Assembly: GCA_016789445.1 (NCBI GenBank)
Contig: JAEUQT010000001.1
Coordinates: forward strand, 1,308 to 65,307
Direction of reading: 5' to 3'
Source: a bacterium
GTDB taxonomy: Bacteria > Patescibacteriota > Minisyncoccia > Phycocordibacterales > UBA2100
Length of the DNA: 64,000 bases
The notes under the pieces were generated by a model. The model was not told the origin of the DNA. It ran no database searches and saw nothing but the letters and a program-made list of their open reading frames with translations. The position numbers and the translations under genes were made by a program. Below are positions 848-62,003 of the stretch, in pieces; within the stretch, counting starts at the first letter, position 1; each line of letters starts with the position of its first letter.

Positions 848-1025
848 CACGCGACCTTCGTCGCCTGCGCAGCTAGTTTTAGTGAGACGGAAGCATATTT
901 CCTTCAGCAGAAGGAAATGCTGAGTCGGGGTGGCGCAAAAATTTTTGCGACGGGAAAAATTTTATGCGTGACCGAAAACGACCATACAAAGAATGAGCCC
1001 ACCGGAAGTTGGTGGGCTCTGTAAG

Positions 1026-3461: not shown

Positions 3462-4433
3462 TTAAACGGTGAAATTTCGAGCTGAGTATAGATCGTCAGC
3501 AGGTTCTTCGGGAGGCAGCAGTTCCGCCGCTATCTCCGGCGGTGTCGCTTCCTGCATCGCTTCTGCGGGCGTAAGGTCAGAGGTAACAGAAGCTTCGCGC
3601 TTCGCAATCAAATCACGCAGGTGTGCGAGATCCTCCGCAGAAAAGAATTCCACGATAAGCTTCCCCGCACCCTTCTCCTTCTTCTCGATGCGCACGCGCG
3701 TACCGAGCGAATCCGAAAGCTCCCGCTCGAGCGTGAGTAATTCCGGTGTCAGGTCGCCCTTGCGGGTCTTCTCCGTCGCGATGCGGCGCGCAAGCTGCTC
3801 GGTGTCGCGCACATTCAATCGTTTCAATTTGATGTCTTCAAAGAGCACGCGCTGCTCTTCCGGACGCTCCTGGAGCATAAGGAGCGGACGCGTATGACCC
3901 TCGGTGATCTCACCGGAGACGACCGCATCTTGGATATCCTGCGGCAGAAGGAGGATGCGGAGCGAGTTCGAGACGTATTCGCGGCTCTTACCGACCTTCT
4001 TGCCGATCTCCGCATGCTTCAGGCTGAACTGATCGACAAGCTGTTTGAATGCCTTCGCGCGATCCACCGCATTGAGATCCTCGCGCTGGAGGTTCTCGAT
4101 GATCGCGAGTTCGAGCTTCATCTGGTCACTGTCTTCCGCGCGACGGATGACGACCGGCACCTGGTAGAGACCCGCCAGTTTCGATGCGCGCAGACGGCGT
4201 TCGCCAGCGATGAGTTCGTACTCGACACGGATTCCCTCACCCGGAATCTCGGTCTCCTTACGCGTCACGGTGAGCGGCTGCAAGACGCCGTACTGACGGA
4301 TGCTCTCCGCAAGCGATGCAAGCGCCATCTGGTCGAATTCCTTACGCGGCTGGTACGGATTCGGCTTGATGCGATCCACCTCTACCCAGTAGATGGAATT
4401 GTCGTACAGCGCCTTTCCTGGAATTTCCTCCAT
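3462..4433 (-). CDS. parB: Chromosome partitioning protein ParB/Spo0J
   Basis: ParB N-terminal box KPNPYQPRKEF...GVLQPLTV...LIAGERRLRASKLAG, an HTH region and an acidic C-terminal tail. Confidence 0.9.
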   Translation of the reverse strand: MEEIPGKALYDNSIYWVEVDRIKPNPYQPRKEFDQMALASLAESIRQYGVLQPLTVTRKETEIPGEGIRVEYELIAGERRLRASKLAGLYQVPVVIRRAEDSDQMKLELAIIENLQREDLNAVDRAKAFKQLVDQFSLKHAEIGKKVGKSREYVSNSLRILLLPQDIQDAVVSGEITEGHTRPLLMLQERPEEQRVLFEDIKLKRLNVRDTEQLARRIATEKTRKGDLTPELLTLERELSDSLGTRVRIEKKEKGAGKLIVEFFSAEDLAHLRDLIAKREASVTSDLTPAEAMQEATPPEIAAELLPPEEPADDLYSARNFTV

Positions 4434-4465
4434 ATCGAGAGGATTATATCACGGTGCCGGAAGAA

Positions 4466-4624
4466 GCTCGGTCACGGATAATTTCCTCGCCGACGCTCGG
4501 GAATTTCCGCGACCCCGGCTCGCGGTCCTGCCTGCTAGCGGGACATCGCTCCGCCTTTCGAGTCTCTCACAGACAGCGCATTGGCGCTGTCTTTTCCGGC
4601 ACCGCTTTCGCGATGCTCAATCGG
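4466..4624 (-). repeat. Type-A composite structured repeat, immediately downstream of tRNA-Leu(CAA)
   Basis: Contains GACTCGAAAGGCGGAGCGATGT...CCGCGAGCCGGGGTCGCGGAAATT...ATTATCCGTGACCGAGC and the hairpin GACAGCGCcaatGCGCTGTC. It is near-identical in architecture to 19041-19196. Confidence 0.75.
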
Positions 4625-4707
4625 TGCCGGAAGAGAGACTCGAACTCTCAAGGGGTTGCCCCCGCACGATTTTGAGTCGTGTGCGTATACCATTCCGCCA
4701 TTCCGGC
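4625..4707 (-). tRNA. tRNA-Leu (anticodon CAA)
   Basis: Reverse complement reads GCCGGAATGGCGGAATGGTATACGC-ACACGACTCAAAATCGTGC-long variable arm-GAGAGTTCGAGTCTCTCTTCCGGCA, with acceptor GCCGGAA/TTCCGGC and anticodon loop cuCAAaa. Confidence 0.85.
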
Positions 4708-4800
4708 TTGTATGAAGCCAAACATCAGGATTCTAGCCTTTCTAGGCTCATTCTGCTAGGCTGCCCGAAGCCAATAGTGGCTCAAAAAGAGGTGAATAGG

Positions 4801-7476: not shown

Positions 7477-7486
7477 GACCTTTTTG

Positions 7487-7520
7487 AAAGCCGCGCGAAT
7501 TACTTCGCGCGGCTTTTTTT
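7487..7520 (+). terminator. Rho-independent terminator
   Basis: AAAGCCGCGCGAATTACTTCGCGCGGCTTTTTTT. Confidence 0.8.
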
Positions 7521-7530
7521 GGATCGTTGC

Positions 7531-7672
7531 GGTCACAACTCTCACTCTCGCCGTAGCTCGAGTTCGGTCGCGACCCCGCCTCGTCCGTTTCGCCTACTGG
7601 CGAAACATACCTCCGGCTCCCGCAAAAGCACAAAGACAGCACGCAGGTGCTGTCTTGTGTGTATTTTGCGGG
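7531..7672 (-). repeat. Type-A structured repeat (reverse orientation) in the 3' region of the AOX-like gene
   Basis: Reverse complement reads CAAAA-ACACACAAGACAGCACctgcGTGCTGTCTTTGTGCTTTTG...ATGTTTCGCCagtagGCGAAAC-GGACGAGGCGGGGTCGCGACC...GTGACC. The same modules occur at 19684-19890. Confidence 0.7.
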
Positions 7673-8688: not shown

Positions 8689-8828
8689 TAACGAGGATCG
8701 GAAGAGAAAGCTTGCTTTCTCTTTCTCCGAGTGACGGGTTCATACGATCCTCTAGTATGGACCCTTCGGGACTGAGTATAGAACCTGGAATGCTAAGCGC
8801 CAATACGCACCACGTGCACCACTAGCAG

Positions 8829-8910
8829 ACTTTGGAAACCCTCGGTTTTCCAACGCTCGCTTCTCGCTGCCTTCCGACACGGGGAACTCCCGTTCCCCGA
8901 CCCCCTCCCG
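8829..8910 (-). repeat. Type-B structured repeat (copy B1) between rpmG and tRNA-Trp
   Basis: Reverse complement reads GGAGGGGGTCGGGGAACgggaGTTCCCC-GTGTCGGAAGGCAGCGAGAAGCGAGCG-TTGGAAAACCGAGGGTTTCCAAAG. It is paralogous to 16126-16273, 55682-55803 and 61916-62003. Confidence 0.75.
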
Positions 8911-8951
8911 CTGCAAATGGTGAGTGCACCATTCGAGCAAGCGGCAAGATA

Positions 8952-16125: not shown

Positions 16126-16273
16126 CGTGCGCAGCAGCGCACGGGCGGAGGGGGTCGGGGAACCGCCATCGGTTCCCCGTGTCGGAGAGCAGGGCGGCGA
16201 GCGAAGCGCTGCCGTCCGTTGAGAACCGAGGGTTCTCAAAACGAACCGCCGGACTGGCCGGACGGTTCGTTTC
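16126..16273 (+). repeat. Type-B structured repeat (copy B2) in the divergent intergenic region upstream of infB
   Basis: GTGCGCagcagCGCAC hairpin, then GGAGGGGGTCGGGGAACCgccatcGGTTCCCC-GTGTCGGAGAGCAGGGCGGCGAGCGAAGCGCTGCCGTCCG-TTGAGAACCgaggGTTCTCAAAA. Confidence 0.75.
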
Positions 16274-18243: not shown

Positions 18244-18316
18244 GGCCACGTGGTGAAGGGGTAACACGGGAGTCTGCAAAACTCTTACTGCGCGGGTTCG
18301 AGTCCCGCCGTGGCCT
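18244..18316 (+). tRNA. tRNA-Cys (anticodon GCA)
   Basis: Acceptor GGCCACG/CGTGGCC, anticodon loop CTGCAAA, T-arm GCGGGTTCGAGTCCCGC, discriminator U73 typical of tRNA-Cys. Confidence 0.85.
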
Positions 18317-18372
18317 CCGTTTTTGCAAAACCGCTACTGGATGGGTGAGACGGGGTTGGGGCCCCGTCGCAA

Positions 18373-18436
18373 GGCCGGAGACGCTCGGCGTCGAGGCGGG
18401 GTCGCGGAAATTTTCAGCAGAAAATTATCCGTGACC
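18373..18436 (+). repeat. Type-A structured repeat (minimal module)
   Basis: GGCCGGAGacgcTCGGcgtCGAGGCGGGGTCGCGGAAATTTTCagcaGAAAATTATCCGTGACC. Confidence 0.75.
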
Positions 18437-18503
18437 AACTCCACCGCCTCCCCAACCATACAATTGACTAATCCTCATCCTCATTGCAGGATTCCCCTAT
18501 CCT

Positions 18504-18935: not shown

Positions 18936-18956
18936 TCCGTGATATAAATCTCGTAC

Positions 18957-19037
18957 GCCGGGGTGGCGGAATGGTTTACGCAGACGACTTAAAATCGTTC
19001 ACCGAAAGGTTTGTGGGTTCGAGTCCCACCCCCGGCA
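18957..19037 (+). tRNA. tRNA-Leu (anticodon TAA)
   Basis: Acceptor GCCGGGG/CCCCGGC, D-arm GCGGAATGGTTTACGC, anticodon loop CTTAAAA, long variable arm, T-arm GTGGGTTCGAGTCCCAC. Confidence 0.85.
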
Positions 19038-19040
19038 CAG

Positions 19041-19196
19041 ATTGAGCAGAGCGAAGCTGTGTCGGGGAGAACAGTGCCGACGCACTGTTCGGGTGGGACT
19101 CGAAAGGCGGAGCGATGTTTCGTCAGCAGACGAAACCGCGAGCCGGGGTCGCGAAAAAGTCTGCACGACGGTGCAGACTTTATTCGTGACCGAGCC
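19041..19196 (+). repeat. Type-A composite structured repeat, immediately downstream of tRNA-Leu(TAA)
   Basis: GATTGAGCA...GTGTCGGGGAGAACAGTGCcgacGCACTGTTcggg-GACTCGAAAGGCGGAGCGATGTTTCGTCagcagACGAAACCGCGAGCCGGGGTCGCGAAAAAGTCTGCACgacgGTGCAGACTTTATTCGTGACCGAGCC. Confidence 0.8.
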
Positions 19197-19683
19197 AAAC
19201 GGAATCAAAACGAGCTCTTTGCCGAGTCCTTCTCCCGGCAGCGAAAATTGTTTACACAAGATTCTTGAATCGCTCTTTCAGGAGTCGATATCTACGAATC
19301 GTATCGGGTTGCGAAAGAACACGCCCACTGTCTCTCTCTTCTCCTTCAAGTTGTTGAAACGTGAGGTCTGAATATTGGTCCTTTGTAAAATCAATCTGCG
19401 TTCCGTCTGCGAGAGCGTTCCAGTAATGTGAGCGCAAATGCGCATATTTAGATATATGTGCCAGTGAACCGCACATCAACTTACCACCCAAGTATTCCTG
19501 CGCTAAAACAGAAGCAACTGCACAATGTCCCCACAATGGATTGTGTTCTGTCCAATGTTTCGGATCTGCAGATGTGTCGCGCTGCGCGACATTTCTCAGT
19601 ATTCGTGAGAATGTGTCTCGATCGACTGTCATATCTAGCACTAATTAGCTTGATAATATCATTCCTTATCTTCACGGATATTT
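19197..19683. other. Low-GC islet between tRNA-Leu(TAA) and tRNA-Lys, flanked by type-A repeats
   Basis: GC visibly about 45% versus about 60% for flanking DNA. One hypothetical gene (19252-19641). Confidence 0.5.
19252..19641 (-). CDS. Hypothetical protein in a lower-GC islet between tRNA-Leu(TAA) and tRNA-Lys
   Basis: 129-aa ORF. The local GC (~45%) is clearly below the window average. Confidence 0.5.
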   Translation of the reverse strand: MLDMTVDRDTFSRILRNVAQRDTSADPKHWTEHNPLWGHCAVASVLAQEYLGGKLMCGSLAHISKYAHLRSHYWNALADGTQIDFTKDQYSDLTFQQLEGEERDSGRVLSQPDTIRRYRLLKERFKNLV

Positions 19684-19890
19684 CTTGCCCGACGGTGCAA
19701 TAAATTCCGCGACCCCGACTCGCCGCTCCGGCAGCTGCCGGAACATCGCTGCGGCTCGGACGAGTCCTCAAAGATAATGTTCTCGCCGTCGCTCGAAAAT
19801 TTCCCCGAGCCTGGCTCGCGGTTTTGCGTGCTCGCAAAACATCGCTCCGCCTCGGACAAAAGCACAAAACCTCCCACAGGGGAGGTTGTT
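19684..19890 (-). repeat. Tandem type-A structured repeat modules immediately downstream of tRNA-Lys
   Basis: Reverse complement reads CAAAAGACACAACAACCTCCCctgtGGGAGGTTTTGTGCTTTTG-TCCGAGGCGGAGCGATGTTTTGCGagcacGCAAAACCGCGAGCC...ATTATC...GAGCCGCAGCGATGTTCCGGCagctGCCGGAG...GTCGGGGTCGCGGAATTTATTGCACC. Confidence 0.75.
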
Positions 19891-19963
19891 GTGTCTTTTG
19901 TCCGCCCAGTAGGGATCGAACCTACGACCTGCCGATTAAGAGTCGGATGCTCTACCAGCTGAG
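19891..19963 (-). tRNA. tRNA-Lys (anticodon CTT)
   Basis: Reverse complement reads CCGCCTA-TA-GCTCAGCTGGTAGAGC-A-TCCGACTCTTAATCGGC-AGGTC-GTAGGTTCGATCCCTAC-TGGGCGG-A, with anticodon loop cuCTTaa and a C1:G72 first pair. Confidence 0.8.
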
Positions 19964-20065
19964 CTATAGGCGGATTGCCGATAATATACCATGTCTCATC
20001 AAATTGTCAGCTCTATAACAAAGAAACCAGGACCGAAAGGTCCTGGTTAGTAGATAGGGAGATGA

Positions 20066-20443: not shown

Positions 20444-20525
20444 GGGCAGGTGGCGAAATTGGTAGACGTACCGCGCTTAGGACGCGGCGCCGCAAGGCAT
20501 GGAGGTTCGAGTCCTCTCCTGCCCA
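20444..20525 (+). tRNA. tRNA-Leu (anticodon TAG)
   Basis: Acceptor GGGCAGG/CCTGCCC, D-arm GCGAAATTGGTAGACG, anticodon loop CTTAGGA, long variable arm, T-arm GGAGGTTCGAGTCCTCT. TATAGT -10 at 20429-20434. Confidence 0.85.
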
Positions 20526-20528
20526 CAT

Positions 20529-28469: not shown

Positions 28470-29603
28470 ATGGCTACAGCTACTAAGGCTGCCGAGGTCG
28501 AAGTCCTCGACAGCGAAAAAGAGGAAGCGGTGCAGGTCCCGACGGGGCCGATGGCAGAGTTCCTCGAATCGACACCGAAGCGTCCGATGAACGACGATGT
28601 CGTCGAAGGTCCGGTCATCGCGATCGGCCGCGCACGCGTCTTCGTCGACCTCCACCCGTTCGGTACGGGTATCATCTACGGCCGCGAATACCTCTCAGCT
28701 CGCGAGGCTCTTAAGAACACCAACGTCGGCGATACCATCACCGCGAAGGTCGTCGGCATCGAGAAGAAGGAAGGCTACATCGAGCTCTCGCTCCGCGAGG
28801 CTCGCCAGGCGCTCATCTGGGGCGAGGCGGAGCAGGCGATGCAGAAGAAGACCGTCTTCCAGCTTCCGGTCACCGACGCCAACAAGGGCGGCCTCATCAT
28901 CAACTGGCAGGGCATCCAGGGCTTCCTCCCGGCATCGCAACTCGCACCGGCACACTATCCGCGCGTTCCGGATGGCGACAAGGAGAAGATCTTCGGCGAA
29001 CTGAAGAAGCTCGTCGGCACCAATCTCGAACTCCTCGTCATCACCGCGAATCCGAAGGAGCAGAAGCTCATCTTCTCCGAGAAGGGTGCAGGCTCGTCTG
29101 AGCGCTCATCGCTCGTCGAGAAGTACCATGTCGGCGATGCAGTCGAAGGCGTTGTCACCGGCGCTACGGAATTCGGCGTCTTCGTGAAGCTCGAGGAAGG
29201 TCTCGAAGGCCTCGTCCACATCTCTGAGATGGACTGGGCGCTCGTCGAGAACCCGAAGAGCCGCTACAAGGTAGGAGAGAGCGTGAAGGTGAAGGTCATC
29301 GAGATCAAGGACGACAAGGTCTCCCTCTCGATCAAGGCTCTCAAGGACGATCCATGGAAGGCAGCTGCCGCGAAGTACAAGAAGGACCAGAAGGTGGAAG
29401 CCGTGGTCATCAAGTACAACAAGCACGGCGCGCTCGCATCCATCGAGGAAGGTGTCGCAGGTCTCGTTCACATCAGCGAGTTCAAGGATGAGAACGATCT
29501 CCGCGCATCGCTCGAGCTCGGCAAGGTCTACCCGTTCGTCATCAAGCTCTTCGAGCCGAAGGAACGCCGTATGACGCTTTCGTTTGCTGGTGAGAAGCGA
29601 TAA
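28470..29603 (+). CDS. rpsA: 30S ribosomal protein S1 (four S1 domains)
   Basis: Repeated S1-fold motifs (GxV, ...GLVHISE...) four times. 377 aa. Confidence 0.85.
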   Translation: MATATKAAEVEVLDSEKEEAVQVPTGPMAEFLESTPKRPMNDDVVEGPVIAIGRARVFVDLHPFGTGIIYGREYLSAREALKNTNVGDTITAKVVGIEKKEGYIELSLREARQALIWGEAEQAMQKKTVFQLPVTDANKGGLIINWQGIQGFLPASQLAPAHYPRVPDGDKEKIFGELKKLVGTNLELLVITANPKEQKLIFSEKGAGSSERSSLVEKYHVGDAVEGVVTGATEFGVFVKLEEGLEGLVHISEMDWALVENPKSRYKVGESVKVKVIEIKDDKVSLSIKALKDDPWKAAAAKYKKDQKVEAVVIKYNKHGALASIEEGVAGLVHISEFKDENDLRASLELGKVYPFVIKLFEPKERRMTLSFAGEKR

Positions 29604-29619
29604 TAGTTGAGCTTCGCAA

Positions 29620-29683
29620 GGCCGGAGGCGCTTGGCGCCGAGGCGGGGTCGCGCAAAATCGCAGTAGCGATTTATGCGTGACA
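29620..29683 (+). repeat. Type-A structured repeat (minimal module) after rpsA
   Basis: GGCCGGAGGCGCttgGCGCCGAGGCGGGGTCGCGCAAAATCGCagtaGCGATTTATGCGTGAC. Confidence 0.75.
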
Positions 29684-29820
29684 TCAGTAATCCCAACCGG
29701 CAATTCAAATGCGCCCCAGAGAGGGGCGCATTTGACATATGTGTAAACGCATGTTAAAGAGAATCCTCCTCAAACGTGCTCCACGTGAAAGGCTTTAGAT
29801 ACGTTTACGTCAATCCAGGT

Positions 29821-30145: not shown

Positions 30146-31867
30146 TTAATTTGCCACTCCAGGAGAAGGAGTTTCGTCGTCGATCCAATCAGCTGCCGTT
30201 CCTGTATCAACAGTAAGATTTGAACGCACGAGCGAATGTCCCGGCAATACATCTACCGCTCCATTGCCTGAAACGAACCCATCGGTATTTGCTCCCCATG
30301 AGAGGGAGTCGACCGTAGTTGTCGCTGCATCCCGCAAGAAGAGCGATTCGCTGGAATTGTTAAGGCCGCTACCGAGCGCACTCTCGAAGGCAACAACCTG
30401 CGTACCGCCAGGAATATTCCAGAAACTACTGAAGGTTGTCGATGCGTTCGTTAGAAGAATGAATCCGCCTGCAGCAATCGTCGTTCCTGCTGGGATACGA
30501 TCGAAATTCGTCGTTGCATCCTTAATCGTCCAATTAGAGAGATCGACTATTGAATTCGTCGGATTATACAGCTCGATCCATTCGTTAGCCGTATCTGCTC
30601 CATGTGATACATCAGGCTGGTCATACACTTCACTAATAATGATGTGATCAAGACTTGGCTCCGGCTCAGCTTCCGGCACGAAATTCACCGTCACACTGTC
30701 CGTCGATGTGCCCGCTTCATTGCTGCACTCAAGTGAGTACGTAGTTGTCGCGTTCGGTTCGACGATCTGATTTCCATTTAATGCCTTTGCGCCACTCCAA
30801 CCTCCGGTTGCAAGACATTGATCCGCATCAGTCGTCGTCCATGTAAGAGTGGAAGTCGCGCTACCTGCACCCGGCGTCACACTGGTCGGGTTCGCGCTGA
30901 TGGAAACATCCGGAGCGTCCTGCGCTTCGTTCACGGTAACCGTCACCGAATCCTGTGCCGTTCCACCGGGTCCGGTGCATTCGATCGCATAGGTTGTCGT
31001 TACCGTCGGCGAGACATCCGCCGTGCCATCAAGGTCCTTCGAGCCGCTCCATCCATTCGACGCCGTGCAGCTCGTCGCATTCTCCGAGTTCCACGTAAGT
31101 TCCGAGGAACCGCCTTCGGTGATGGTCGTCGGATCAGCACTGATATCCACGCTCACGCTCGGTTGCGCGACGACATTCACCGTCACACTCTCGGTCGACG
31201 TGCTGACGCCATTACCGCATGCAAGCGTGTACGTCGTTGTCGCATTCACCGTCACGACCTGGGAACCATCAAGCGATTTCGTACCGCTCCAACCATTCGA
31301 TGCAACACACGCCGTCGCATTCGTTGAATCCCAGCTCAGCGTGGAAGTACCACCCGCGGTTACGTTCGTCGGATTCGCATCGAAATCGAGAGTCGGTGTC
31401 GGAAGCGGTTCTTCCTCATCAACGGAAACCGTTACCGACTTAGATACGCTTCCTCCTGCGCCTGAGCAGTTGAGCGTATATGTCGTATCTTCGTCCGGCG
31501 AAACACTCTGAGAGCCCGACGTATTCTTGCCACCACTCCATCCGCCCGATGCGGTACAGCTGGTCGCATTCGTCGTACTCCACGAGAGCGTCGAGCTCTC
31601 TCCCTCGCCTATTTCAGCAGGGTTCGCCGTAAAGGTAAGTGTCGGTTTCGGTGTCGGATTCGGCGCATCCTCGCAGAGCGATGGATTGATAAGCGCGCGG
31701 GCAAGACGGCCCGCAAGACGATCCTGACGATCGCACAATCGCTTCTTCACCTGATCAGTGAGCGATGCCGCATCCGCTGCACCCGGCAGCATGAATGCGA
31801 ACGAAGCGATAAGAAGGAGAACACTGATAATCTGACCTGACCGCAGTACGTGCCCGTTATTCCCCAT
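30146..31867 (-). CDS. Secreted protein with five tandem ~90-aa Ig-like repeats and a C-terminal lamin-tail-domain-like module
   Basis: Signal peptide. Repeats of the form L(T/S)F(T/D)ANP..(G/E)G.S.L.W.(S/T)(T/E)NAT.C(T/V)ASGGWSG.K...GSQ.V.P...TTY.L.C.G.GG. C-terminus IISEVYDQP...NEWIELYNPT...DLSNWTI...LRD resembles the LTD signature. Confidence 0.75.
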   Translation of the reverse strand: MGNNGHVLRSGQIISVLLLIASFAFMLPGAADAASLTDQVKKRLCDRQDRLAGRLARALINPSLCEDAPNPTPKPTLTFTANPAEIGEGESSTLSWSTTNATSCTASGGWSGGKNTSGSQSVSPDEDTTYTLNCSGAGGSVSKSVTVSVDEEEPLPTPTLDFDANPTNVTAGGTSTLSWDSTNATACVASNGWSGTKSLDGSQVVTVNATTTYTLACGNGVSTSTESVTVNVVAQPSVSVDISADPTTITEGGSSELTWNSENATSCTASNGWSGSKDLDGTADVSPTVTTTYAIECTGPGGTAQDSVTVTVNEAQDAPDVSISANPTSVTPGAGSATSTLTWTTTDADQCLATGGWSGAKALNGNQIVEPNATTTYSLECSNEAGTSTDSVTVNFVPEAEPEPSLDHIIISEVYDQPDVSHGADTANEWIELYNPTNSIVDLSNWTIKDATTNFDRIPAGTTIAAGGFILLTNASTTFSSFWNIPGGTQVVAFESALGSGLNNSSESLFLRDAATTTVDSLSWGANTDGFVSGNGAVDVLPGHSLVRSNLTVDTGTAADWIDDETPSPGVAN

Positions 31868-31985: not shown

Positions 31986-32103
31986 TCGGGATATTTTTCG
32001 TTTGCATTCCGAGGGTTTTCGCAGGCCCGACGGGGCCGAGACTGAGCGCTGCGCCAGCAGGCGCAGATAGCGACCCGAGGGAGGCAAGCGGAAAATATCC
32101 CGA
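31986..32103. repeat. Type-C MITE-like structured repeat with terminal inverted repeats
   Basis: Termini CGGGATATTTTTCG ... GCGGAAAATATCCCG. Core TTCGCAGGCCCGACGGGGCCGAGACTGAGCGCTGCGCCagcagGCGCAGATAGCGACC. Paralog at 54226-54326. Confidence 0.75.
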
Positions 32104-32106
32104 AGA

Positions 32107-32712
32107 TTAGTTGAACTTATTCATCGCGATCTCGCGTCCGTCGCTGACGATCAGCTCCAACGCCTCCCCTGCTTTCTTGAAAACGCTCTTCAGCGCCTGC
32201 ATTTCATCCGCCTTGAACTCGCCGAGGATGAATTTCTCCACTTCAGCCTCTCCCTGCGGCTTCTTCGCGACGCCATCCTTGTTCTCCTTTGAGATTCCGA
32301 GACGTATTCGTACGAATCGCTTCGTCTTCACGGCAGCAGCGATCGAATCGATCCCTTTATGTCCTCCGGAACCGCGATCGAAGGAGATTTTTATCGTTCC
32401 GAGCGGTAGATCGAGATCGTCATAGACGACAACGAGCTTCTCGGCGGCTTTCACGCTCTTTATATAGTGCAGAGCGGCGAGTCCGCTCTTATTCATATAG
32501 GTATTCGGCAGGACCGCGACCGCGATACTCTTACCGATCATGCCGCGCGCGATGAATGATCTCGCACGTGACTCCTCTTTCCACTCGGAGAAGCCGTGTT
32601 TCTCGGCGAATTTCTGCACCATCATGCGTCCGGCGTTATGCCGCGTACGCGCGTACTCTTCGTCGGGGTTTCCTAAGCCGATAACGACCCATGTCATGCG
32701 CATATCGTACAT
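32107..32712 (-). CDS. pth: Peptidyl-tRNA hydrolase
   Basis: VVIGLGNPDEEYARTRHNAG... Confidence 0.9.
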   Translation of the reverse strand: MYDMRMTWVVIGLGNPDEEYARTRHNAGRMMVQKFAEKHGFSEWKEESRARSFIARGMIGKSIAVAVLPNTYMNKSGLAALHYIKSVKAAEKLVVVYDDLDLPLGTIKISFDRGSGGHKGIDSIAAAVKTKRFVRIRLGISKENKDGVAKKPQGEAEVEKFILGEFKADEMQALKSVFKKAGEALELIVSDGREIAMNKFN

Positions 32713-48560: not shown

Positions 48561-48605
48561 CATGAGACACAAAACCTGCCCTGCGGCAGGTTTTGTGCCA
48601 TGTGC

Positions 48606-48762
48606 GAGCCGGAGCGATGTTCCGCCAGCAGGCGGAACCGCGAGGCCGGGTCGGGCGGCAGTTTGCGCGACGGCGCAAGCTGAATGCCTGACCACACATG
48701 AAAGACCGGCGAGACGGGGTCGCGAAAAAATTCGCCTGACGAGGCGGATTTTATTCGTGACC
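48606..48762 (+). repeat. Two tandem type-A structured repeat modules downstream of tRNA-Val
   Basis: GAGCCGGAGCGATGTTCCGCCagcagGCGGAACCGCGAGGCCGGGTCGGGCGG..., then GAGACGGGGTCGCGAAAAAATTCGCCtgacgAGGCGGATTTTATTCGTGACCGATCC. A 15-bp direct repeat TGAATGCCTGACCAC at 48681 and 48818 brackets the second module. Confidence 0.75.
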
Positions 48763-48844
48763 GATCCTTTCTGCTCCATCGCGACGGCGACGGGAATCTC
48801 TGTGACCACTGAGAATTTGAATGCCTGACCACGAGCAACTCTTT

Positions 48845-54225: not shown

Positions 54226-54326
54226 GGCGGGTATGTTTCTATTGCGGTCTTCGCAGCGCCGACGGGCGCGAGACTGAGCGCTGGGCCAGCAGGCCCAGAT
54301 AGCGACCGCAATTGGAACATATCCGC
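54226..54326. repeat. Type-C MITE-like structured repeat with terminal inverted repeats
   Basis: Termini GCGGGTATGTTTCTATTGCGG ... CCGCAATTGGAACATATCCGC. Core TTCGCAGCGCCGACGGGCGCGAGACTGAGCGCTGGGCCagcagGCCCAGATAGCGACC. Stems covary relative to copy C1. Confidence 0.75.
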
Positions 54327-55605: not shown

Positions 55606-55681
55606 TTGGTGCTTGGGACCGGGGTCGAACCGGTGACCCTTCCCTCTTCAGGGGAATGCTCTACCAACTGAGCTACCCAAG
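55606..55681 (-). tRNA. tRNA-Phe (anticodon GAA), CCA encoded
   Basis: Reverse complement reads GCTTGGG-TA-GCTCAGTTGGTAGAGC-A-TTCCCCTGAAGAGGGAA-GGGTC-ACCGGTTCGACCCCGGT-CCCAAGC-A-CCA. Confidence 0.9.
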
Positions 55682-55803
55682 CAGAATCTCCGAAAGGTTC
55701 CGGAGATTCTTTGAGAACCCTCGGTTCTCAACGGGCTATTTCGCTTCGCTCATAGCCCTGCTCTCCTACACGGGAAAACTACAGTTTTCCCGCCCCCTTT
55801 CGG
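55682..55803 (-). repeat. Type-B structured repeat (copy B3) abutting the 5' end of tRNA-Phe
   Basis: Reverse complement reads GGGGGCGGGAAAACtgtagGTTTTCCC-GTGTAGGAGAGCAGGGCTATgagcgaagcgaaATAGCCCG-TTGAGAACCgaggGTTCTCAAAGAATCTCCggaacctttcGGAGATTCTG. Confidence 0.75.
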
Positions 55804-55820
55804 GCAGACTATACCATTTC

Positions 55821-56132
55821 CTAGTTGCCCTGGAAATACTGCGGGAATTGCGCACGAAGGTTCTGAAGCGCATCGTTCAGGCCGCTCATCTGTGCCGAAG
55901 CACCGGTACGAGCGCCTTCGATCTGCGCCATGGTGTCCAGCATACTGTTCATGACTGGAGCAACGTATTGCAGATACAGCCAGAGCGGTATGACGAGGAA
56001 TGCCGCCCAGATGACGAACTTCACGATGCCGCCCCAGAACGCACTACGGCGCATCGAGCGCAGCATGCGGTTATTCTCTTTCGTGAGTTTCAGCAGCTCA
56101 TCGAGCTTATCTCCCTCGTACTCGATCCCCAT
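55821..56132 (-). CDS. Hypothetical membrane protein
   Basis: 103 aa with a central TM helix. Confidence 0.45.
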   Translation of the reverse strand: MGIEYEGDKLDELLKLTKENNRMLRSMRRSAFWGGIVKFVIWAAFLVIPLWLYLQYVAPVMNSMLDTMAQIEGARTGASAQMSGLNDALQNLRAQFPQYFQGN

Positions 56133-56133
56133 G

Positions 56134-56415
56134 CTACTTCACTTCGCAGGTTGTGCAATCCGGTTCGTGCTTTGCGGAACTTGCGAGAATGCCGAGGATG
56201 AGTGCGTTCCAGAGAAGGAAGAGCGGATCGAACTGTCCGATCGGTGCCTGCATAAGGACACTGACCCACGCGAGGATAAACGAAAGGGCGCTGAGAACCC
56301 AGAGAACCTTCCATGCCCACATTTTAGCGATGTGCATATTCATGAATCTAAACTTATGTAATAAGGGATACGGATAATGATACCCTTCCCTGCCTCTCGT
56401 GAGCGTCCTATCCAC
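56134..56415 (-). CDS. Hypothetical membrane protein
   Basis: Two TM helices. The start is probably internal (MNMHIAKMWAWKV). Confidence 0.4.
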   Translation of the reverse strand: MDRTLTRGREGYHYPYPLLHKFRFMNMHIAKMWAWKVLWVLSALSFILAWVSVLMQAPIGQFDPLFLLWNALILGILASSAKHEPDCTTCEVK

Positions 56416-59706: not shown

Positions 59707-59891
59707 AGCCGTATAATCTTATCACCCTATGAGTTTCCTCTTTCACCGAAAGACCAAGAAGGTCTTGAACGCGATCTGGGCAGTCGTCGCAGTACTCATC
59801 ATCATCAGCATGGTACTGTTCTTCGCTCCAGGCCTCGTCGACCTCATTATCTAGGCTTTCGCCCAAAAATCTCGAATCCGCGTCGTTGCGG

Positions 59892-59990
59892 ATCACGCAT
59901 AAATCGCTGGTGCGATTTTGCGTGACCCCGCCTCGCAGCCGAGCTGCTCCGGCCTTGCGACGGGGTCCCAACCCCGCCTCACCTCTGCGT
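59892..59990 (-). repeat. Type-A structured repeat (reverse orientation) downstream of lepA
   Basis: GTCACGCATAAATCGCtggtGCGATTTTGCGTGACCCCGCCTCGCAGCcgagCTGCTCCGGCC is the reverse complement of the consensus seen at 29620-29683, with a compensatory loop change. Confidence 0.75.
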
Positions 59991-61865: not shown

Positions 61866-61915
61866 ACATTACGCAGTGTACAGAAGCATGGACTTGAGAG
61901 CGCACATTGTTCGAA

Positions 61916-62003
61916 AGGGGTCGGGAAAACTGTAGTTTTCCCGTGGAGGAAGGCAGGCCGCTGTGCGGCCGTTGGAAACCGTGGGTTTCCAAGGAGCCGT
62001 GGT
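61916..62003 (+). repeat. Type-B structured repeat (copy B4) inserted between the lepA start and a duplicated lepA 5' fragment
   Basis: GAAAGGGGTCGGGAAAACtgtagGTTTTCCC-GTGGAGGAAGGCAGGCCGCtgtGCGGCC-GTTGGAAACCgtggGTTTCCAAGG. Confidence 0.75.

Follow-up and report, generated by a model that had tools for sequence, protein, structure and literature searches.

A small structured element repeated behind leucine tRNA genes of a Patescibacteriota genome is probably a non-autonomous, site-specific mobile element

In a 64,000-nucleotide (nt) stretch of a Patescibacteriota contig (JAEUQT010000001.1; hereafter the window), the genes for tRNA-Leu(CAA) and tRNA-Leu(TAA) are each followed by what appeared to be the same composite of hairpins. 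Is this composite a processing or termination structure that belongs to the tRNA genes and co-evolves with them, or is it an element that inserts preferentially at tRNA 3' flanks? The original prediction offered both possibilities. Our analysis favors the second: with a probability of roughly 75%, the two composites are integrated copies of a family of small (~100-200 nt), non-coding, non-autonomous, site-specific mobile elements in Patescibacteria and Elusimicrobia. We hold this view because of direct repeats of gene ends, tandem and nested copies, sites that are filled in one genome and unfilled in a close relative, and targets that are not tRNA genes.

The leucine tRNA composites and their core

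The window contains 13 tRNA genes, among them tRNA-Leu(CAA) (4623..4707, minus strand; called by ARAGORN, Rfam tRNA score 58.2 bits, CCA not encoded) and, from the tRNA gene calls, tRNA-Leu(TAA) (18957..19038, plus strand) and tRNA-Leu(TAG) (20444-20526, plus strand). The trailers of the first two form a 142-nt inverted pair (4466-4607 versus 19054-19195) with 74% identity, so the shared composite that had been proposed is real. It had been drawn too short at ~160 nt, without the second copy of the tRNA 3' end; the whole composites, ~170-200 nt long, span 4453..4622 on the minus strand and 19039..19242 on the plus strand. Both fold more stably than shuffled sequences (z = -4.8 for Leu(CAA) and -6.4 for Leu(TAA), with 0 of 200 shuffles equally stable), and a covariance model scores both at E ~1e-9. 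The variable hairpins differ in sequence between the two copies and keep their complementarity through compensatory changes in every stem, as originally noticed. The trailer of tRNA-Leu(TAG) is a plain intrinsic terminator (CAAAACCGGAGCgtgcGCTCCGGTTTTG followed by TTATT), also as described before.

Reading along the minus strand, the Leu(CAA) composite consists of a leader (GATTGAGCA), an acceptor-like outer helix, a variable hairpin, a strand that we call the guide, a three-way-junction core of helices P1, P2 and P3 with joining strands J1/2 and J2/3, and, distally, a repeat of the tRNA 3' end. Sequence and fold place the 5' strand of the outer helix, GCGGTGCCGGAA, at 4594..4605, where it is antisense to the acceptor 3' strand, the discriminator and CC of the tRNA; in the minimum-free-energy fold, 4594-4605 closes with 4453-4464. 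The variable hairpin, likewise from sequence and fold, is GACAGCGC-caat-GCGCTGTC (4572..4592), and its Leu(TAA) counterpart, AACAGTGC-cgac-GCACTGTT, shows full compensation. The guide, GAGAGACTCG (4559..4568), is the 5' strand of P1, as P1 covariation indicates, and is antisense to T-loop positions 56-60 plus the 3' strand of the T-stem (CGAGTCTCTC). The conserved core (4471..4558; pattern match at 4471-4516; covariance model R1 48.4 bits, E = 1.3e-9) comprises J1/2 AAA, P2 (GGC, a bulged G, a tandem G.A, a hairpin and GCC), J2/3 GGG, and P3 (GGTCGCGG...CCGTGAC). Directly after ...CGTGAC stands the distal repeat CGAGCTTCTTCCGGCACC (4453..4470), which copies the tRNA 3' end CGAGTCTCTCTTCCGGCACC with slight decay.

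The Leu(TAA) composite (R1 48.9 bits) has the leader AGATTGAGCA, the outer-helix 5' strand at 19056-19069, the hairpin at 19070-19089, the guide at 19092-19102, the core at 19103-19190 and CGAGCC at 19191-19196. Beyond these lie a remnant of a second subfamily (19197-19221, recognized by comparison with two relatives discussed below) and CCGAGTCC plus TTCTCCCGGCAGC (19222-19242). Each composite thus ends in a second copy of the 3' end of its own tRNA (TTCTTCCGGCACC for Leu(CAA), TTCTCCCGGCAGC for Leu(TAA)), and these terminal copies pair with segments antisense to them early in the trailer, GGTGCCGGAA in Leu(CAA) and GCTG..CGGGGAG in Leu(TAA). The antisense segments of Leu(CAA) come in the order GGTGCCGGAA, hairpin, GAGAGACTCG. 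In the predicted folds, both composites close like an acceptor/T-arm minihelix with the core at the position of the T-loop, and the outer helix and P1 would imitate the acceptor and T stems of the adjoining tRNA.

An extended -10-like promoter, TGTGATATAAT, lies at 4433-4452, directly after the Leu(CAA) composite and ahead of parB, and another, GTGATATAAA, at 18940-18956, directly ahead of tRNA-Leu(TAA). A simple sigma-70 scan called neither, because both lack a -35 element. We found no terminator-like site in 4300-4800.

We searched GTDB, with one genome per species, for the core pattern GGGGTCRCGNAAA-N(12-34)-TTATNCGTGA. Below, L-numbers denote stretches that were matched or are related, and counts over the locus set (120 loci, 127 cores) hold among the matches listed. 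The pattern occurs in at least 120 stretches of GTDB species genomes, nearly all of them from Patescibacteria or Elusimicrobia. Among the matches listed, the Patescibacteria include Kaiser-, Taylor-, Nomura-, Yonath- and Zambryskibacteria, Paceibacterota and many metagenome-assembled genomes (MAGs) labelled Saccharibacteria, and about 23 loci carry an Elusimicrobia label. The window itself is most similar to Patescibacteria contigs, and it contains five matches to the pattern where 0.00 were expected.

We parsed the core in 109 copies and aligned 40 diverse short ones. The result is a three-way junction in the order P1, J1/2, P2, J2/3, P3, where P1 is variable in sequence, J1/2 is usually AAA or AAG and J2/3 is GGG. 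P2 is built of 3 bp, a bulged G, tandem G.A/A.G pairs and a variable hairpin. P3 is built of GGUCGCGN, a bulged A, a 7-bp variable stem, an AGCA-like loop and a closing N'CGUGAC, and its outer sequence GGUCGCG...CGUGACC includes a near-invariant G.U pair. The 3' strand of P1 follows P3 directly, with a linker length of 0. In the 40-copy alignment, 89.7% of the pairing cells were complementary compared with 71.6% in shuffles (0 of 500 shuffles reached this value), double-change cells numbered 209 compared with 68, and slid controls paired at 34-44%. Scoring P1 in a rigid register under-counts its pairs because junction length varies, so the aligned count is the better measure. P2 and P3 were recovered independently by RNAalifold, and the flanks of the cognate gene pair better than non-cognate flanks. 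Such compensatory change in the alignment is evidence of selection on the core itself. The G.U pair of P3 is kept in 39 of 40 copies on the element strand, and the fold is therefore a property of one strand, whether in RNA or in single-stranded DNA.

Neither databases nor literature held a counterpart. With Rfam 15 at gathering thresholds, the window and 18 loci gave only tRNA and transfer-messenger RNA (tmRNA) matches, scanning both Leu regions at permissive E-values yielded nothing above chance level, and full-text literature searches found no description of the element. A paper on Patescibacteria tRNA introns describes group I introns, which lie at other positions than the element.

Gene-end repeats at tRNA and protein genes

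Among the 127 cores, 53 lie 46-263 nt downstream of a tRNA or tmRNA gene on the same strand, and together these cover 27 different tRNA anticodons as well as tmRNA with three different tag peptides. A direct repeat of the 3' part of the upstream tRNA starts immediately after ...CGTGAC. It runs from T-loop C56 through the T-stem, the acceptor strand and the discriminator, often into the genomic trailer, and it starts at the identical tRNA position in 16 copies. At least 12 exact nt are shared with the cognate tRNA 3' end in 19 of 52 tRNA-linked copies (up to 27 nt), compared with 0.16% of non-cognate pairs. Where the repeat reaches the genomic trailer, it extends over 25 exact nt in L021, 27 in L033 and more than 40, including the terminator hairpin, in L095.

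The 5' strand of P1 is antisense to this repeat, with ATTCG, ACTCG, AATCG and AGTCG standing opposite the T-loops CGAAT, CGAGT, CGATT and CGACT. Many copies, including both Leu composites of the window, have an extra antisense segment that pairs with the acceptor strand. The outer helices thus co-vary with the adjoining tRNA because one of their strands is copied from the tRNA 3' end and the second is antisense to it. Co-evolution with the tRNAs, which had been suggested at the outset, stands in this sense, as a tRNA copy and its antisense and not as a structure owned by the tRNA.

The same arrangement is found at protein genes. Six insertions in rplL lie ~six codons before the gene end (L040, L069, L073, L076, L097 and L026); in five of the six, the distal copy encodes the same last 4-5 residues and stop codon through synonymous codons, and the 18-nt copy in L040 is identical. 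In L010, topA contains a 33-nt exact repeat followed by two diverged homologous C-terminal coding ends (SCANHNPHKREKK versus TCPNHNPHKKGK). The window topA carries an insertion at the same site (879..976, plus strand, by covariance model), where CGTGAC is followed by CGAAAACGACC..., in which the topA codons ACTAAAACGATCC recur in decayed form. These sequences show that the diverged gene ends are replacement ends borne by the element and not simple target-site duplications. Such patterns are the expected residue of an integrating element that bears a foreign copy of the gene end, and integrases that target tRNA genes are known to leave the same signature.

Filled sites, unfilled sites and competing explanations

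Close relatives of the window differ in whether and where they carry the element. L010 has a tRNA-Leu(CAA) that is 100% identical to that of the window (84/84) with no element after it. We do not count this as a clean empty site, as the L010 tRNA is inverted relative to parB and the flanks cannot be aligned across the site. L121 and L122, which share 88% and 82% IF-2 identity with the window, carry after tRNA-Leu(TAA) a different subfamily with the same architecture and another P3, of which the window retains the remnant at 19197-19221. The R1-type composite starting with AGATTGAGCA lies at the functional tRNA-Leu(TAA) end in the window and at a displaced pseudo-end in L122, as expected if the same element could use either copy of the target. 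Where the window has the Leu(TAA) and Lys elements (19039-19899), L122 (9120-9290) has their 5' parts joined head to head in a perfect palindrome, ggcggagcgatgttttgcgtgttcgcaaaacatcgctccgcc, and lacks the YunG-like gene that separates them in the window, which indicates recombination or deletion between inverted element copies. Tandem or nested copies occur in L023, in L097 and in the Lys and Val trailers of the window. In L121, tRNA-Lys and its element (8805-8942) are inverted relative to the window (19663-19973) and to L122.

These observations bear on the other explanation originally offered, a host-encoded 3' trailer (processing signal, exonuclease block or terminator) that co-evolves vertically with its tRNA genes, which we now consider unlikely. 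It draws on the sense orientation of all Patescibacteria copies linked to tRNA, tmRNA, rplL or topA genes, which would be co-transcribed with them, and on the lack of any intrinsic terminator separating the Leu(CAA) composite from the parB promoter. The acceptor/T-arm minihelix is a form that RNase P and RNase Z can read, and the predicted outer helices, which mimic it, might in principle be read in this way. As a primary explanation, however, processing fails because an identical tRNA in L010 does without the element and because the same core occurs after protein genes (topA, rpsA, lepA and rplL), antisense to tRNAs and to a copy of 5S rRNA, and as an interruption of coding sequence; moreover, just 5 of the 13 window tRNAs have it. 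The terminator idea fails because native intrinsic terminators sit downstream of the element (at the rplL loci and at 7480-7520 of the window), and the core ends in ...CGUGAC without a U-run. A host trailer would also leave the diverged replacement gene ends without a role. A side benefit to the host, as a 3'-end stabiliser or a processing site, is possible and is not needed to account for the data.

A second alternative, to which we assign a still lower probability, is a family of independent genes for tRNA-like trans-acting small RNAs that lie beside tRNAs and are released by tRNA-processing enzymes. The strongly conserved, covarying fold with its strand-specific G.U pair, the minihelix-like closure and the high copy number (about 13 modules in 64 kb) all suit such a family. 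The sequence of P1, however, is not conserved and copies whichever gene lies upstream, which is unexpected for a trans-acting RNA with a fixed target; in addition, copies lie within coding sequence and in the T-loops of pseudo-tRNAs, and we detected no promoter belonging to the element.

Those pseudo-tRNA sites involve a second form of the element. In closed-P1 copies, found in Elusimicrobia, in some Patescibacteria and at the Cys, rpsA and lepA sites of the window, the partner of P1 lies upstream in a local hairpin, so that the order is 5'-(G)TGAG-hairpin-GCAAG-P2-GGG-P3-3'; these are plain insertions. They lie in T-loops antisense beside an intact tRNA, as in L117 with the repeat AGTACCCCCACCAGG, and also in hairpin loops. 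We compared the functional tRNA-Cys of the window (18244-18318) with those of L121 (7935-8010), L122 (7851-7925) and L058. These relatives have the unusual T-loop TGCAACT in tRNA-Cys, which is uninterrupted in L121 and L122, whereas the functional gene of the window has the canonical T-loop TTCGAGT and differs from its relatives in the anticodon stem and T-arm. Directly after this gene lies a pseudo 3' half of the ancestral type, matching L121 and L122 (18325..18451, plus strand; GCAAAACCGCTACTGGATGGGTG at 18325-18347 and CAACTCCACCGCCTCC at 18436-18451), whose T-loop is split exactly at GGGTG|CAACTCC by an 88-nt closed-P1 element (18348-18435; R1 match 18363-18443, plus strand, 74.3 bits). 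The comparison suggests that the 3' half of the window tRNA-Cys has been replaced.

In L002 and L009, the element lies antisense in a partial 5S rRNA copy that adjoins an intact 5S gene, with a local hairpin followed by AGA/AAA instead of GCAAG; in L013, it lies beside a 5S gene. These copies extend the target range to 5S rRNA. Near-identical 126-nt closed-P1 elements interrupt DUF2075-like P-loop ATPase genes in L116 (703-829) and L044 (reverse strand, 4209-4335), one before the Walker A motif and the other at the DEVH box. Both insertions use the only stop-free frame of the element, giving a 42-residue insert (VRPGFR...MRFMRD), and both genes look degraded downstream. For this reason we do not claim an in-frame coding-palindrome or intron function in Elusimicrobia.

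That both insertions fall in the only open frame of a 126-nt element is one argument for an intron-like or self-cleaving ribozyme. Others are the ends (G)TGAG...CGTGAC, which give closed-P1 copies a GUGAG start and an AC end, and P3, whose CGC triad, G.U pair and bulged A resemble domain V of group II introns. We nevertheless find this explanation highly improbable. Elements of 100-126 nt are too short for group II domain I, and we rejected the domain V resemblance on size and missing domains. The element has three helices only, and the GUGAG...AC boundary likeness is restricted to closed-P1 copies. No Rfam intron or ribozyme family matches, including the hammerhead, twister, twister-sister, pistol, hatchet and hepatitis delta virus-like families, and on a direct reading the junction strands of AAA, GGG and 0 nt appear mismatched to a hammerhead core. 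Open-form copies follow complete genes that need no splicing, and both interrupted coding sequences look degraded downstream. A survey reports no group II introns for Patescibacteria (PMC13011429), which also weighs against an intron.

On the mobile-element reading, the common open form bears three parts in the region of its 5' end: a copy that replaces the gene end, a linker that is often a hairpin, and a guide antisense to the gene end. The replacement copy extends from T-loop C56 to beyond the discriminator in tRNA and tmRNA targets, and over the last codons and stop codon in rplL and topA. Insertion would produce an intact gene, the element and the displaced original gene end, and pairing of this displaced end with the guide would make P1; host DNA joins the element exactly after the final C of ...CGUGAC, where P3 meets P1. 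The spare gene end brought along would therefore keep the target gene intact. No open reading frame (ORF) lies inside the element or between the repeats, which are 105-210 nt apart.

Because of this spacing, the strand-specific fold, the use of one core for dozens of unlike targets and the presence of a guide in every open copy, we tentatively suggest, at well under even odds, that the element moves through a single-stranded (RNA or DNA) and probably circular intermediate and that pairing between guide and target sets the insertion point. The guide would exchange its partner, from its own cassette to the identical target sequence, and so place the ...GAC end at the insertion point; the reaction would be catalysed by an enzyme acting in trans or by the core. 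An element without a promoter would be transcribed by virtue of lying in sense orientation behind highly expressed genes. Topologically, the closed-P1 form is the open form cut at the P3/P1 junction and circularly permuted, a relationship that would point to a circular intermediate; this cut is the same point at which host DNA begins in every open copy. Similarly tentative is the further idea of a new class of nucleic-acid-guided mobile element, in which the three-way junction would act as recognition or catalytic module and the P1 guide would select the site. Such an element would explain how one constant core comes to lie at dozens of tRNA, tmRNA, 5S and protein-gene ends in two phyla without ever inactivating them.

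Several points weigh against mobility, or against parts of the evidence for it. Loci were collected with a P3 pattern, so that outer P3 is in part conserved by construction, and the core parse demanded P2a pairing; P1, P2b, inner P3 and the diversity of pair types in P2a are free of both biases. Many tRNA-linked copies have short or decayed repeats, with a median exact match of 7.5 nt, and some loci, including the tRNA-Cys of the window, require more than one event. Mobility is read from comparative footprints only, because we saw no excised form, circle junction or recent identical copies. We found no autonomous relative among the ORFs upstream of the L085, L105 and L108 cores (chosen for a tRNA-like distal repeat with no nearby tRNA), and a search within loci for distant repeat partners found none. 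Nor was a recurrent linked protein family evident among the largest clusters of the 558 ORFs from the 120 loci listed; these clusters carried no Pfam annotation, and the few recognisable ones look like housekeeping genes. Finally, the fact that Patescibacteria copies behind tRNA, tmRNA, rplL and topA genes lie strictly in sense orientation and the strong structural conservation also fit an RNA function at the host level, which could coexist with mobility.

L105, whose distal repeat resembles a tRNA-Ser end with no tRNA nearby, contains a serine-recombinase N-terminal fragment (..YARKSTEDDDRQVMSIE.., 2289-2589 in element orientation) 2.7 kb upstream of the core, a single case.

A further alternative, also one to which we give very little credence, is that the copies are attR scars of conventional integrase islands or prophages once inserted in tRNA T-loops and later deleted: T-loop and 3'-end sublocations, tmRNA targets and repeats starting in the T-loop are classic tyrosine-integrase features, but random deletion would not be expected to leave, at more than 100 independent loci, the same ~85-nt core abutting the repeat at one exact nucleotide and under selection as its compensatory evolution shows, integrases are neither nearby nor recurrent across the loci listed, and the pattern is absent from 2.9 million viral contigs save for one chance match inside an AT-rich glycosyltransferase coding sequence. 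We have no evidence for a phage-borne origin.

Known mobile elements and other copies in the window

To place the element among known systems, we compared it with several classes. Tyrosine-integrase elements, which Williams reportedly sorted in 2002 into classes by their sublocation in tRNA genes, are alike in targeting tRNA and tmRNA genes within the T-loop or 3' part, or protein genes at their 3' ends, in regenerating the gene from a carried copy of its end, in their flanking direct repeats and in tandem accretion at the same site. The mycobacteriophage Ms6, for example, has its attB in the T-loop of tRNA-Ala (PMC1762012). The present element has the direct repeats of the tRNA 3' part starting in the T-loop; unlike those elements, it is 100-200 nt long, with no integrase gene between the repeats and no other ORF. 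One near-constant core serves 27 tRNA anticodons, tmRNA, rplL, topA and 5S, the repeat abuts the three-way junction at one exact nucleotide, and the element also contains the att segment in an antisense copy.

Rickettsia palindromic elements (RPEs) are 100-150 bp long and occur in intergenic and protein-coding regions (PMC1779305). Like RPEs and the miniature inverted-repeat transposable elements known as MITEs, the element is small, non-coding and multi-copy, has a stable fold, resides in reduced genomes, is occasionally inserted in frame in coding sequence and encodes no mobility enzyme; its presence also varies among relatives (L121, L122 and L010 versus the window). It differs in having neither fixed terminal inverted repeats nor a short fixed target-site duplication, as P1 is made from target sequence and its strands vary by locus, and the repeats measure ~7 to 44 nt, some running into diverged homologous gene ends. 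Strong site specificity at gene 3' ends with a replacement cassette, and conservation across two phyla, set it further apart.

Members of IS200/IS605 have strand-specific hairpins at their ends, a single-stranded circle, a 4-nt guide pairing by the hairpin foot and non-autonomous miniatures (PATEs, REP/REPIN), whose subterminal imperfect hairpins are recognised by a Y1 HUH transposase and which insert 3' of a 4-5 nt target with no duplication. The strand-specific structure and an element end at a hairpin foot would suit such a miniature, and the idea of a short guide pairing is similar, whereas here the guide pairing is 6-20 nt, and the gene-end cassette and long repeats are found here only. 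No TnpA- or RAYT-like family recurs near the copies at the 120 loci listed, no IS605-associated Rfam family matches, and the cores bear no relation in sequence.

Integron attC sites and the attP(+) of CTX phage are folded single-stranded recombination substrates. They resemble the element in that the site is made by intramolecular pairing of one strand, with structure conserved over sequence and strand-specific mismatches or bulges, but here there are no R/L boxes and no dif-like target, and the targets are many different gene ends. The bridge (seek) RNAs of IS110/IS1111, and group II introns with their pairing of exon- and intron-binding sites, belong to systems of more than 1 kb that encode a recombinase or reverse transcriptase and have no long repeats. 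They too combine a structured non-coding RNA with programmable target-complementary segments; here, the complementary partner flanks the element in cis on either side. The element thus lacks at least one defining feature of T-loop integrases, of MITEs and RPEs, of IS200/IS605 and of attC and CTX attP, and there is a real chance that its mechanism may be new.

If the mobile-element reading is true, no smaller site-specific integrating element with repair of its own target would be known, and the family would be a natural pairing of a constant structured core with a programmable, target-matched helix. It would make site choice by non-autonomous elements, and a guide role for RNA or single-stranded DNA, testable. 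The elements create pseudo-tRNA ends, duplicated gene ends, and inversions or deletions between copies, which matters for the annotation and assembly of MAGs, and a covariance model of the core is at hand for annotating intergenic structures, unexplained so far, that number in the hundreds in Patescibacteria and Elusimicrobia. The genomes of Patescibacteria are tiny and are considered poor in mobile elements. In contrast, a covariance-model search with filters off listed about 13 modules of the family in the 64-kb window; the copies beyond Leu had first been seen by short motif searches and repeat finding, and the genes adjoining them were identified by Pfam. These related modules lie at tRNA-Lys, tRNA-Cys, tRNA-Val, four protein genes and two sites with divergent copies. 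As the original prediction would have it, they are enriched beside tRNAs within the window, at 5 of 13 tRNAs compared with 4 of about 67 ORFs (Fisher p = 0.005).

The tandem modules that had been noticed beside tRNA-Lys were confirmed. The trailer of tRNA-Lys(CTT) (19900..19973, minus strand, from the tRNA gene calls) spans 19663..19899 on the same strand. A long terminator-like hairpin (stem 19868-19887) follows directly after the tRNA, upstream of both core modules, which lie in tandem at 19764-19857 and 19663-19749. The tRNA-Val(GAC) trailer (48562..48769, plus strand) starts with a hairpin, after which come one divergent module (~48597-48693) and one of the R1 type (~48694-48769; R1 match 48675-48769). 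At the protein genes, besides topA, a closed-P1 copy lies at the 3' end of rpsA, which encodes S1 (29610..29690, plus strand, 74.9 bits), another after lepA (59884..59964, minus strand, 71.4 bits), and a weaker copy after an AOX-like gene (7527..7625, minus strand, covariance model E = 0.06), with a canonical intrinsic terminator following the copy. The last codons and stop of rpsA (..GGTGAGAAGCGATAA, 29590-29606) fall inside the first hairpin of the element, and the end of this ORF is therefore supplied by the element.

Repeat finding and the covariance model also located two copies of a divergent subfamily, with the same architecture and another P3, on the plus strand at 32007..32082 (more widely, 31986-32103) and 54242..54311. 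They are 89% identical and read GGTyTTCGCAG-[GCCC gacg GGGC]-CGAGAC-[TGAGCGCTGsGCC agca GGsCCAGATAGCGA]CC. The first lies within a 31-nt inverted repeat between the minus-strand ORFs 30146-31867 and 32107-32712.

Small structured repeats seem to abound in the genome. Further families of intergenic repeats that appear to have no relation to the element lie at 16173-16240, 55710-55802, 61912-61967 and 35666-35722/40239-40295, with arms that are 84-86% complementary; the one at 55710-55802 stands just upstream of tRNA-Phe and overlaps a predicted ORF (55656-56201).

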